Shown: positions 426 to 4,731 of the stretch, piece by piece | Layout: each line of letters starts with the position of its first letter | Position numbering within the stretch: position 1 is the first letter of the stretch | From: an uncultured virus (IMG/VR IMGVR_UViG_3300011475_000006) | Taxonomy: Duplodnaviria; Heunggongvirae; Uroviricota; Caudoviricetes | DNA: 24,624 bases | IMG/VR virus record: IMGVR_UViG_3300011475_000006 | Reading direction: 5' to 3' (one strand) | Translations under genes and position numbers: made by a program | Notes under the pieces: model-generated | Seen by the model: the letters and a program-made list of their open reading frames with translations, nothing else | What the model was told of the DNA's origin: nothing | Databases searched by the model: none

Positions 426-839
426 TTAATTGCCGTACAGCCGATTGAAAAGCGCATTTTTCATCGCATCAGAATCAATCGGATCCAGGTTTAACCAAGT
501 CAATGTCTCACGATTCTTTTCTACATTGAAATCAGAAAACACACCATGGATATCACCGCTATCAGGTGAGTAAAGAACAGCAATATTCTGTTCTGGACAA
601 CTATGAGGTTTACACCCTGACAGGGCAATATACTTTTTCCCTGCAACCGTAACTTCGGTTGATGGCGTGCTTGTGCCACCACTTTTCACCCATGCAGGAA
701 GTTTGCTTTTACTAATAAGCTGGGAGTAGCTTTTAGAGGTACTTTTTGCACTGGCGAAGTCATAAAGATACTGCCCCTCGTCAGCAACAGCACTGAACGA
801 AACCAAAGCCATAGCAGCGAGAATCACTTTACCTTTCAT
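426..839 (-). CDS. ivy: Inhibitor of vertebrate (C-type) lysozyme, Ivy family, with signal peptide
   Basis: GCKPHSC loop matches the Ivy CKPHDC motif; Sec signal MKGKVILAAMALVSFSAVA; GAGGA SD before ATG at 839. Confidence 0.88.
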   Translation of the reverse strand: MKGKVILAAMALVSFSAVADEGQYLYDFASAKSTSKSYSQLISKSKLPAWVKSGGTSTPSTEVTVAGKKYIALSGCKPHSCPEQNIAVLYSPDSGDIHGVFSDFNVEKNRETLTWLNLDPIDSDAMKNALFNRLYGN

Positions 840-1086
840 ATTATTCCTCAATCCATAAAGACACCTCAACTCTATACCTTTGCAGTCGCTATGTCAGCCC
901 TATGGATAATCAGAGCATTTGAAGTTACTGCCCGGCCCAAATGATTAGGTAAGGATTATCTTAATCACTAGCGCTTATGCTTGTTGATTACTGCCTGACT
1001 GCCAGACTGTTCAGGACTCTGATGCGGAGAATGCCAACTCCAGGGAATCATCGATAAAAAGAGCAAGTGAAACTGAGACTCCTTTA

Positions 1087-2155: not shown

Positions 2156-2357
2156 CTCGGCTCCTGCTGCGGCGGTTGTCTTCACGGATCTTGAAATAGA
2201 GGTTTGTCAGGTACGTCATCACTGCAATGATGATACCCACCAGCACGCCGATAGCGTTCCACTGCTCGGGACTGTAGGCATTCAGCATGCCGTTTAGGAT
2301 GCTACCGGCTGAAGCGCCGTATGCAGCACCGGTGGTTAGTTTGTCCATGCGATACAT
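2139..2357 (-). CDS. Class II pinholin with dual-start motif (phage 21 S-like)
   Basis: [18 protein letters not shown] start (Met1/Met4), two hydrophobic segments, basic C-terminal tail. Confidence 0.92.
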
Positions 2358-2396
2358 ACTCTCACCTCGCTTTGTGCGGGTGCTGAATTTGAGAAT

Positions 2397-2424
2397 AAAA
2401 AAAGCCCGCTCTTTTGAAGCGGGC
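2397..2424 (-). terminator. Rho-independent terminator directly upstream of the holin
   Basis: GCCCGCT-N7-AGCGGGC with T7 on the minus strand. Confidence 0.8.
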
Positions 2425-2575
2425 CAATGAGTTAACTATTTGTAAGGTAGGTGTGAGTGAAACCAATACCTCAGTAGTGAGACTGTATCGACTGATTCAC
2501 ATTAGTATCAGGAGAACCACCGGGCATTCAGTAACTTCTCACGACTTAAAGAGTAGCAGTAGTTTTCCAAGCCAT

Positions 2576-2745
2576 AAAAAAAGGCCTGCGTTTTATGGCA
2601 GGCTCTCAAGGAATTTTAATCTTTTATTGTTGTTGTCATGGTGCCGGGTGCCTCCCGGTGACCCTACCCCAGTCAGCAAGGCCGCGTGCATACCTGCAGA
2701 GCGCAGTTGACTGGAACGCCCTTTCGCTTAGAAAGGATTCACCAC
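2576..2745 (-). ncRNA. Candidate structured sRNA, copy 1 (scaffold + C/A-rich tail + terminator)
   Basis: Promoter upstream, closing stem GUGGUG/CACCAU, conserved CCGGG-AGGCA-CCCGG hairpin, terminator GCCTGC-N8-GCAGGC-C-T7. Confidence 0.65.
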
Positions 2746-2751
2746 ATGCAT

Positions 2752-2781
2752 AAATTACTCATGAAGCATTCACCCGGTCAA
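2752..2781 (-). promoter_or_regulatory. Putative sigma70 promoter for sRNA copy 1
   Basis: TTGACC-N18-TAATTT, with 6 nt to the G that begins the conserved scaffold. Confidence 0.55.
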
Positions 2782-2798
2782 TACTATTCAACATTCGC

Positions 2799-2973
2799 AA
2801 AAAAAAAGCCTGCTCGGACAAGCAGGCATAAATAGCTAAGTTGGCAATAACTGAGGGAGTGGTGCCGGGTGCCTCCCGGTGGAAATGATCACAGCATTCA
2901 TTCCCGCGCGCTGGTTAGACACTCTGGAGAAATGTCCTGCTGAACCGCCCCTCCGCTTAGGGGGATCCACCAC
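2799..2973 (-). ncRNA. Candidate structured sRNA, copy 2 (scaffold + CU-rich tail + terminator)
   Basis: 22-nt identity with copy 1 (2860-2881 vs 2639-2660), covarying stems, terminator GCCTGCT-N6-AGCAGGC-T9. Confidence 0.62.
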
Positions 2974-3063
2974 TAAAACGCTTTCAGAAACATCCATTCT
3001 GCAGGATGCTTAAGAAGCATATGTGCAGTATGAAGAATCTGCCACGTAATCAAATGAATATAT

Positions 3064-3255
3064 TCATTTGAATGGTACAGGAAGAGGGCCTTCAATCACC
3101 TCGGCCTCTCCGTTATCGCAGATGTCGTCACCCTGTGTCAGATGCCAAATACCATTAAAAATAAGTCCCGTCTCAAGGTCTTCAGTAACGCCATTGCTGT
3201 AGTAAGCAACCTGAATCCTGCCGTTGTGCTGAATCCAGTAGTAACCTTCTTGCAT
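3064..3255 (-). CDS. Small prophage hypothetical protein
   Basis: AAGGAG SD, 63 aa MQEGYYWIQHNG..., acidic and aromatic-rich; resembles ORFs commonly found between Q and lysis genes. Confidence 0.7.
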   Translation of the reverse strand: MQEGYYWIQHNGRIQVAYYSNGVTEDLETGLIFNGIWHLTQGDDICDNGEAEVIEGPLPVPFK

Positions 3256-3380
3256 GATCATCTCCTTAACATGATGAGATGAGTATATTGCTGAGTTGAG
3301 ATGAATGGCGTTAGATATACTCAGGATTTATTTCTGTCATGAGGATAGGACTTCCTCATCACTGTTGCCGAACTACTCAG

Positions 3381-3692
3381 TCAGATCTCATTCATCTCAG
3401 ATACTTCAAACTGAAAGACATAGGGATCAGAAAGAAGCTCAAATTGCTCATCGTCTGGATAGGTTACCGCTACGTGGTAATTTTCACCTGCGAAAGCCTT
3501 AATGGATGAGAGATCACGCCAATAAGTTGCCAGAAAGAAATGCTCCCATTCTCCCTGTCGTTCACGCCGTACGTATGCACCTTGGTTGCCATTAACACTT
3601 TTAGAGTGCTTAACTCCCGTTAATTCAAGATGCGCAGCAAACCCATCACCGTGTCGTACTGGTACGCAACCATGCCATGTTCTTACAATCAT
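3381..3692 (-). CDS. Antibiotic biosynthesis monooxygenase (ABM)-like dimeric alpha-beta barrel protein
   Basis: MIVRTWHG start, GNQGAYV and TYWRDLSSIKAFAG motifs; GGAGG SD. Confidence 0.75.
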   Translation of the reverse strand: MIVRTWHGCVPVRHGDGFAAHLELTGVKHSKSVNGNQGAYVRRERQGEWEHFFLATYWRDLSSIKAFAGENYHVAVTYPDDEQFELLSDPYVFQFEVSEMNEI

Positions 3693-3784
3693 ACCCCTCC
3701 ATTAAATGTCTGAAAGTGAATTTATATTCACATTATCATAATATTTAATCTCTTTGGGGGTTTTAAAATGCATTCTGACGTCAT

Positions 3785-3817
3785 AAAAAAGCCCCACGGG
3801 GTTAACCGCAGGGCTTT
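3785..3817 (-). terminator. tR'-like terminator
   Basis: AAAGCCC...GGGCTTT hairpin with T6 on the minus strand, about 55 nt after the pR' start. Confidence 0.8.
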
Positions 3818-3830
3818 AAACGAAGGCAAT

Positions 3831-3875
3831 AACCCATCGTTAGAGCAAAATTACCACAGATTCGGGAAAAGTAAA
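3831..3875 (-). promoter_or_regulatory. Late promoter pR' with sigma70-dependent pause element (qut)
   Basis: TTTACT-N16-TAATTT (with TGn extension), then AACGATGGGTT from 3841, matching the start of the lambda pR' transcript. Confidence 0.85.
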
Positions 3876-3897
3876 TAGTTCACGATAAATTCACGCC

Positions 3898-4731
3898 CTA
3901 TTTTGTAATCTGCTTAAGCTGCGTTTCAGCCCAGGCCTCTTCGATATCAAACTTGGTGATTAGCTGATCGTAAAATGGCTTAACAGATTTCTTCCATGTA
4001 TCGAGGCTGATTGCATCCGTTATCTGACACACCGCGGCGTAAGCCTCAGTTGAAGGAATTCGCTCAAACCCTCGCCCACTGCAGCGCTTGCAATCAGCAA
4101 GTACCGGAACGCCCTGCTGCTCTGTAAGAGCCTGATTCACAGCTTTCCCGCGGCCATGACAATCTTTACAGGCACAACTTACTACCTTCTTACCCTTACA
4201 CTGAGGGCATAGAACGCGCGCTACCTCCCTGACCTGTCTGCGCAACTCATACTCAGAAGGACGAATATGCTCGACGCCCATGTGCAAAGACATCTTCACG
4301 AACTTCTTATCTTTTGTCGGCGTGTGAGACTTCATGCTGAAAACCTCAGCGTCAATAAACCCTTCCCCATTGCAGCCATCGCACTGTTTCACGCTGGCTG
4401 CGCTGCGGGAATAGTCCTCGAACGCGAAGGTGGCCAGCTGATGCATCACCAGTGGTTTAAGCCCGGCGTCCAGTTTGCGCAGCGCAGCAACCCGATCGCA
4501 TTTGGTCAGCGCGTACTGGGCCAATAACTCGATCGCCCTCTCCCGGTCATTGTTGCTGATACCCATCTTCCCGAGAAAGGCGCTATAACCCAATGCTGCC
4601 CGTTCCTGCGTCATGCCCATAGCGGCCATGATATCCGTTCCGGTTAATGAGTCTGACGCCGTAGCGCGCGGAGAGTCACTAATCATTGTCGATTTGGCGA
4701 AGTGATATTTGAGGATATTATCAAGATTCAT
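3898..4731 (-). CDS. Q: Late antitermination protein Q (lambda Q family, extended zinc-finger region)
   Basis: [23 protein letters not shown] closely matches the lambda Q N-terminus; CxxC pairs; lies directly upstream of pR'. Confidence 0.93.

Follow-up and report, generated by a model that had tools for sequence, protein, structure and literature searches.

The window, that is, the whole 24,624-nt stretch of DNA from an uncultured tailed virus analysed here, carries on its minus strand a gene for RusA followed by a gene for a 277-aa Q antiterminator (3898-4731; Pfam PF03589 Antiterm, E 2.5e-44). Directly after Q, on the same strand as all features described below, lies a late-promoter-like region with a short terminated leader (3783-3875), in which the promoter, read by eye, consists of TTTACT (3875-3870), a 16-nt spacer and an extended -10 element TGgTAATTT (hexamer 3853-3848); this site is not listed by a consensus promoter scan. 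The hexamer AACGAT at 3841-3836 is followed by the terminator hairpin of the leader (3817-3788, U run to 3783), which has an energy of -27.4 kcal/mol (z -4.12; 0 of 200 shuffles as good), and we take AACGAT to be similar to the pause element of lambda PR'. Two small ORFs separate this region from the two STnc100 units that are the subject of this report, and the second ORF (65 aa, 3064-3261) is overlapped in its 3' part by an isrI-like match (3063-3160; RF01392) that scores 43.7 bits against a cut-off of 45. Downstream of the units are a third terminated non-coding module that has no STnc100 core (2397-2571, with a terminator at 2425-2403 in the terminator scan), a P21-type holin gene (2139-2357; Pfam PF04971), a lysozyme gene (1661-2185; Pfam PF00959), an Rz gene (1203-1682; Pfam PF03245) and, beyond Rz, an Ivy-like ORF.

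The two units are thus flanked by the PF03589 and PF04971 matches, and their placement between Q and the holin, as given in the initial annotation, is correct. From this gene order, the units occupy the moron slot of the late-operon leader and are not the late promoter's own short transcript. Lambda 6S RNA and the StxS-type PR' transcripts are short terminated RNAs of the lysogen that start downstream of Q and are read through after Q acts; the window differs from these systems in that its PR'-like promoter and leader terminator lie about 800 nt upstream of unit A, with the STnc100 units separate from them. A unit-B-like copy followed by the third module is also found in phages HK639, Fraca and SaltyDalty, and HK639 has an annotated terminator at each of the corresponding places.

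In a scan with the Rfam covariance models, both units match RF02076 (STnc100) over its full length (model positions 1-206 of 206), the upstream unit A at 2797-3002 with 76.4 bits and the downstream unit B at 2572-2778 with 52.3 bits, the gathering score of the family being 47 bits. The initial annotation had stated that the pair could be assigned to no Rfam family, which is wrong, and because cmscan returned a known family, RF02076, its claim of novelty falls. For the purposes of annotation, the features in the window are two STnc100 genes and nothing more exotic. STnc100 has been described as a prophage sRNA family expressed in EHEC and Salmonella and is reportedly related to the Hfq-bound PasD sRNAs. 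In EHEC EDL933, 11 annotated STnc100 copies are reported with RNA-seq reads, and STnc100_4 (annotated at 191 nt) is reported to give a Northern band matching the full-length RNA (PMC5331693); one copy located 75 nt downstream of stx2 has been reported from vesicles (PMC12370729).

Every structural detail listed in the initial annotation is present in the sequence where it had been placed, and the two cores it delimited are exactly those matched by covariance model R1, at 2859-2973 in unit A (94.3 bits) and 2638-2745 in unit B (95.6 bits). The two cores are 108-115 nt long, within units of about 170-205 nt, and share a layout in which a closing helix, P1, encloses hairpins P2, P3 and P4, and the strand just 3' of P2 can pair with the P3 loop as a pseudoknot. 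The four helices are returned by unconstrained folding of each core. In unit A they are P1 (2973-2968 with 2864-2859), P2 (2964-2949), P3 (2905-2881) and P4 (2879-2865), and in unit B P1 (2745-2740 with 2643-2638), P2 (2736-2720), P3 (2683-2660) and P4 (2658-2644). The closing stem is GUGGUG/CACCAC in unit A and GUGGUG/CACCAU in unit B; P2 carries compensatory changes around a common loop (CCCCC-UAAGC-GG(A)GGG and CCUUUC-UAAGC-GAAAGG, respectively); P3 keeps its pairing in both copies with sequences that are unrelated; and P4 (CCGGG-AGGCA-CCCGG) is identical in the two.

The complementarity between the P3 loop and an upstream segment is likewise found in both copies, as CAGCA:UGCUG in unit A (2942-2938 with 2896-2892) and CCAGUCA:UGACUGG in unit B (2714-2708 with 2675-2669), and the unconstrained folds leave the proposed 5' strand of this pairing free in each core. 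Past P1 the units diverge into tails of 31 nt in unit A (2828-2858), beginning UCCCUCAG, and 34 nt in unit B (2604-2637), which reads AAC AAC AAC AAU AAA AGA and then UUCCUUGAGA. Each tail runs into an intrinsic terminator with a GCCUGC stem, detected by the terminator scan at 2799-2827 in unit A (stem 2827-2808 plus U run; 8 pairs, 5 of them G-C) and 2575-2603 in unit B (stem 2603-2584 plus U run). The fold energy of either core alone is unremarkable (z -1.56 and -1.86), so that the evidence for the structure comes from comparing relatives.

A covariance model of the core was built from 45 distinct cores, and all matches were aligned to it; the alignments of the nested helices are accordingly fitted to the structure model, and the sequences in each set are related to one another and not independent observations. 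The smaller set (50 matches, 44 distinct, from 33 sources) has 96.9% of its cells paired and changes on both sides in 13 of 24 pairs, with a covariation score of 0.378 against 0.144 for shuffles and 0.04-0.10 for slid controls. The larger set (106 matches, 102 distinct, from 93 sources) has 96.7% of its cells paired and changes on both sides in 17 of 24 pairs, with a score of 0.452 against 0.152 for shuffles and 0.05-0.08 for slid controls. None of 500 shuffles reached the observed score in either set, so the covariation predicted for this fold is borne out: all four nested helices covary, with variation in the larger set at 8 of 8 pairs of P3 and 5 of 6 pairs of P1. The larger set was gathered with an exact 19-mer over P4, which partly forces the invariance of P4 there; near-invariance of P4 is seen too among the cores gathered with the Rfam model, along with one compensatory variant, CCGAG...CUCGG. 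In P2 and P4 the loops as well as the stems are nearly invariant, which suggests a specific partner that binds the core; a mere stabilising role leaves this near-invariance of the loops unexplained. A reading of the invariant GGCAC as a sigma-54 site was set aside, because the spacing to any GC element, judged by eye on both strands, is a misfit to the sigma-54 consensus.

Because a pseudoknot is beyond the reach of a covariance model, it was assessed without an alignment. The 16 nt that follow P2 were matched with the P3 loop of the same unit, the highest-scoring uninterrupted duplex was taken, and its score was compared with a null in which loops were permuted among units. For 39 distinct units, the score with the unit's own loop was 14.08 vs 9.67 +/- 0.41 for permuted loops (0 of 2000 permutations as high), and for 95 distinct units it was 15.16 vs 10.14 +/- 0.26 (0 of 1000 as high). 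An uninterrupted run of 5 or more pairs is present in 87 of the 95 units and one of 6 or more in 75; the 5' strand mostly begins 3-5 nt after P2, and the duplexes comprise 77 different sequences. The permutation results together with the varied duplexes establish that the pseudoknot put forward in the initial annotation is real and general. The RF02076 consensus structure printed by cmscan has no pseudoknot and draws a small hairpin at the position of its 5' strand. No mention of an STnc100 pseudoknot was found in the searchable main text of papers; in the one such text that contains both "STnc100" and "pseudoknot", the latter term is applied to other RNAs, and the word is absent from the main text of the preprint of Zhu, Shabalina and Storz (bioRxiv 10.64898/2026.05.13.724894). 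The 15-mer of the P4 hairpin was printed in no paper found by text search.

RF02076 matches occur in 45 of the 101 genomes around the nearest genome, and all of these belong to its genus (45 of 61 within the genus, 0 of 40 outside it); in 38 of the 101 the match is above the cut-off. Many of the hits stand in tandem, in arrays that reach 5 units in about 4 kb (G056, G033 and G034), and some hits match only model positions from about 30 to 148, which corresponds to the core alone with neither leader nor tail. At least 126 stretches of species-representative genomes contain the exact 19-mer, which spans P4 and the first part of the 3' strand of P1, with Escherichia, Salmonella, Enterobacter, Klebsiella, Kosakonia, Citrobacter, Pantoea, Erwinia, Rahnella and other genera among the matches listed. 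A core-model match accompanies the 19-mer at 74 of the 80 loci listed, the other 6 being four actinobacterial records and two unrelated MAG contigs. The arrangement of two units is also present in an Enterobacter record (L075), and phage PHB10 has a unit-A-like copy. A true tRNA gene also sits in this intergenic slot in both HK639 and PHB10, and both phages have an isrI- or isrJ-like match below threshold there. The window is atypical of E. coli DNA: among 5426 complete genomes of that species only 3 match, and each does so over half of the query at 87% identity.

Unit B has a promoter-like site at 2752-2781, made up of TTGACC (2781-2776), an 18-nt spacer and TAATTT (2757-2752), with 6 nt to the first G of P1. 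This is the promoter described in the initial annotation; its -10 hexamer agrees with TATAAT at only 3 of 6 positions and is for that reason below the threshold of the consensus scan, which lists 0 promoter-like sites in 2300-3400. In unit A, a -10-like hexamer is missing at the usual spacing from P1, so the start of this unit is uncertain and a leader of at least 30 nt is possible; the Rfam model begins at 3002. In the 99 units whose upstream sequence is long enough, TAnnnT hexamers end 6, 7, 8 or 9 nt before P1 in 31, 10, 5 and 15 units, respectively (61 of 99 in total), and most other offsets from 0 to 39 have counts of 0-3, with a maximum of 8. Judged from these hexamers, the core is likely to be the very 5' end of the primary transcript in about 60% of units, which argues against reading it as a processing signal. 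The initial annotation had listed a ribozyme and a signal for the release of the tail among the possible roles of the fold, and nothing in the analysis shows either.

With a simple detector that misses some sites, 39 of 93 units have a terminator-like site whose start is no more than 125 nt downstream of the core, the median distance from P1 being 31 nt. Other units run into ORFs that bear Shine-Dalgarno sequences or straight into the next core, so the core is not tied to an sRNA tail, and serving as a scaffold for a seed may be one use among others. Near-identical cores can be followed by unrelated sequence: of 57 pairs of units with 80% or more identity in the variable core, 19 have tails that are no more alike than shuffled sequence, which agrees with the interchangeable tails of the initial annotation. 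On this sequence comparison the core is a module with a sharp 3' boundary and exchangeable downstream sequence. The converse case, the same tail on different cores, was considered and dropped, as 12 of 50 candidate pairs share mostly terminator-like sequence only. The relatives thus support a modular phage ncRNA family that combines a conserved, covarying, pseudoknotted fold with a variable tail and a terminator, as had been proposed. Contigs from RNA libraries (Logan) cover parts of the stretch in 4 of 4 libraries, and such contigs are not informative of transcription, ends or strand. They include a 216-nt contig on 2840-3055 and a 151-nt contig (run X13) that matches 2632-2746 over 115 nt and continues for 36 unmatched nt beyond 2746.

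Both units have sequence features compatible with Hfq binding, namely a U-rich 3' end and, in the unit B tail, six consecutive A-R-N triplets, a motif reported to bind Hfq (Tree et al.). The unit B tail is CA-rich (GACAACAACAAU), in a run that resembles the GcvB target consensus CACAACA. Against GcvB of the nearest genome it has a predicted duplex of -22.1 kcal/mol that includes the GU-rich R1 region, compared with -15.8 +/- 2.9 kcal/mol for shuffled tails (30 of 1000 as good). Against 1594 background windows of 206 nt the tail gives -10.2 +/- 3.1 kcal/mol; only 3 windows are as good, and the lowest value, -50.5 kcal/mol, is consistent with the antisense strand of the tail itself. High ranks against GcvB are shared by the tails of related copies of the unit B type. 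These duplex predictions are suggestive of pairing between the unit B tail and GcvB and provide a lead only, much of it an effect of composition. The unit A tail gives -13.2 kcal/mol against GcvB, with -14.5 +/- 2.5 kcal/mol for its shuffles (686 of 1000 as good). It does carry an anti-Shine-Dalgarno motif; as a family trait such a seed was discarded, CCUC, CUCC or UCCC being found within 14 nt past P1 in only 8 of 100 units.

The window units share with STnc100 (RF02076) the helices, the terminator and a prophage setting near Q and the lysis genes, and differ in that they stand in tandem and that the core in relatives also occurs without the leader and tail of the Rfam model. By description, they can also be likened to PasD1 and PasD2 of EPEC E2348/69, prophage sRNAs beside Q and the holin-lysozyme genes. 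These are reported to have been found by Hfq RIL-seq, to depend on Hfq for stability, to have many partners and to adjoin Q in >98% of cases, and their authors report structural homology with STnc100, a likely common ancestry and different seed regions (PMC8550237; bioRxiv 10.64898/2026.05.13.724894). As a group, PasA-PasD reportedly give Northern bands of 80-240 nt that match full-length RNAs (PMC8550237). PasD copies are described as lying far apart, unlike the tandem units of the window (bioRxiv 10.64898/2026.05.13.724894). The EHEC prophage anti-sRNAs AgvB and AsxR reportedly occupy this moron slot too, downstream of Q and PR', and AgvB is reported to carry a CA-rich mimic of a GcvB target (CACAACA) and to block GcvB (PMC4104026). 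The unit B tail is CA-rich like AgvB and is predicted to pair with GcvB R1. In contrast to the window units, AgvB and AsxR are described as RNAs of 51-60 nt with no structured core that belong to convergent sRNA pairs, AsxR being antisense to stx2AB (PMC4104026). RF02702 and RF02703 (AgvB and AsxR) have no match in 2200-4000 at E up to 1.

Taken together, we consider it probable that the window contains two adjacent moron sRNA genes of the STnc100 family, each composed of a 5' scaffold core, a tail that binds Hfq and base-pairs, and a terminator. The units would be extra moron transcription units that a lambdoid prophage carries in its late-operon leader, with Q on one side and the lysis genes on the other. 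Each would be transcribed on its own in the lysogen, with unit B starting at the first G of P1, and would stop at its own terminator, so that the holin would stay silent, shielded by three successive terminators; during lytic growth, Q-modified polymerase would pass all three. Like PasD, for which this is reported, the units may use the tail and the U-rich 3' end for Hfq binding and for pairing with host RNAs, and the core may give the RNA a stable 5' scaffold in which the 5' end is hidden within a helix and from which the tail is presented. A conserved partner probably also binds the core by way of the nearly invariant hairpins P2 and P4.

If the core were a sensor, either riboswitch-like or a protein-binding switch, it would decide the use of the downstream terminator or ORF, and the units would be cis-regulatory. 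Its compact multi-helix junction closed by P1, the pseudoknot and the nearly invariant nucleotides of the junction and loops would suit such a role, as would the terminator that follows at a median of 31 nt and, in some relatives, the position of the core ahead of ORFs as a 5' leader. A switch of this kind is very unlikely, as the core and the terminator behind it give no sign of being matched: among 39 units, the 5' half of the terminator pairs with its own core at a mean of -8.96 kcal/mol and with the cores of other units at a mean of -8.78 (equalled by 84 of 500 permutations), the pairing of the 3' half is equalled by 493 of 500 permutations, and the same GCCUGC-type terminator stands behind cores with different pseudoknots. 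In addition, no riboswitch family was matched in Rfam at E up to 1, and the reported action of PasD is through Hfq. A resemblance to tRNA would give the core a different purpose: it would direct RNase P or RNase Z to free the tail by processing, or else act as a decoy against tRNA-targeting enzymes or defences. P1 abuts P4 and the two could stack into a loop-capped helix of 11 bp with two more arms, and the tRNA genes of HK639 and PHB10 lie in this same slot between Q and the lysis genes. Against this, ARAGORN finds 0 tRNA genes in the window, the tRNA and tmRNA models of Rfam have no hit at E up to 1 in 2200-4000, the P4 loop has 5 nt, the CACCA of P1 is base-paired and provides no free 3' end, the -10-like hexamers place the start at P1 and thus leave no 5' leader to remove, and the Northern bands reported fit full-length RNAs (PMC8550237, PMC5331693). 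We regard tRNA mimicry as very unlikely.

The near-invariant stretches could instead be kept as DNA, as a patch for lambdoid recombination or a protein-binding site, with the RNA fold secondary. The 19-mer is exact across many Enterobacterales genera, similarity ends right after the core, as in the pairs of near-identical cores with unrelated tails, and a ChIP-exo figure is reported to include RpoD and RpoN binding at the STnc100 copies of LT2 (PMC10794520). Compensatory changes in P1, P2 and P3 and the variety of the pseudoknot duplexes show selection on the RNA, and a recombination patch would not preserve four helices and a tertiary pairing; a primary role as DNA is thus highly improbable, and a DNA role could coexist with the RNA role. 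The reading as two STnc100 sRNA genes is the one we prefer. It may be extended to a broader model that we hold only tentatively and think less probable than not as a whole, in which the core, of roughly 105 nt, is an autonomous, portable 5'-end module that prophages across Enterobacterales put on diverse moron transcripts (terminated sRNAs, mRNA leaders and bare tandem arrays), P2 and P4 recruit one conserved host or phage partner, and the unit B tail acts as a decoy for GcvB, in the manner of AgvB with its different architecture.

STnc100 is an abundant family, with 11 copies in EDL933, matches in 45 of 61 genomes of the window's apparent genus and a presence in many genera of Enterobacterales. 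The remaining interest of this locus lies in the pseudoknot, which was not found in print, and in the evidence for the core as an autonomous 5' module. If a partner of the core is found, it would explain why lambdoid prophages stack these units before their lysis genes and how prophages tune host sRNA networks such as that of GcvB.

Between unit B, one of the window's two tandem STnc100 (RF02076) units, and the holin gene lies a third non-coding module (2397-2571, minus strand), which has its own strong terminator at 2425-2403 and lacks the STnc100 core. Its only Rfam matches are to OmrA-B (22.5 bits) and the Trp leader (21.6 bits), both weak and terminator-like. Phages Fraca, SaltyDalty, and HK639 carry the third module and unit B as a conserved pair, and the annotation of HK639 places a terminator at the corresponding position. 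The region directly 3' of Q (3783-3875, minus strand) resembles a late promoter, with an extended -10 and the hexamer AACGAT 6 nt past it, and then contains a terminator hairpin (12 bp, z -4.12). Transcription from this putative late promoter would yield a short leader transcript, some 55-60 nt long and distinct from the STnc100 units.

True tRNA genes share the Q-to-lysis intergenic slot with STnc100 units in HK639 (locus L001, 2064-2135, 63.9 bits) and phage PHB10 (locus L002, 2182-2255, 59.9 bits), and the HK639 slot also holds an isrJ-like match (34.6 bits, below the cut-off of 37). In the window, a 65-aa ORF (3064-3261, minus strand) that matched no Pfam family contains, in its 3' part, an isrI-like Rfam match (3063-3160, minus strand; 43.7 bits vs a cut-off of 45). 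An ORF and an isrI-like match are paired in this way in PHB10 as well (38.5 bits), and what the isrI RNA family captures may partly be the end of a small phage mRNA. A possible moron cargo gene lies downstream of the lysis cassette: an ORF (426-869, minus strand) encoding an Ivy (inhibitor of vertebrate lysozyme) domain (PF08816, E 2.8e-19).

Among the relatives, the STnc100 core also occurs in dense arrays, with five core-model matches within 1170 bases of a Pantoea plasmid record of about 1.2 kb (L083) and four within 1693 bases in Superficieibacter (L111). Successive cores in the Pantoea array are separated by about 16 nt, a gap containing neither tail nor terminator. At five further loci (L012:1758-1864, L013, L017, L021, and L090), no terminator-like site was found 3' of the core, mostly by eye and, for L090, also with the terminator-site detector, and a Shine-Dalgarno sequence and ATG follow about 80-100 nt after it. 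Given this arrangement, the core at these five loci resembles an mRNA 5' leader.
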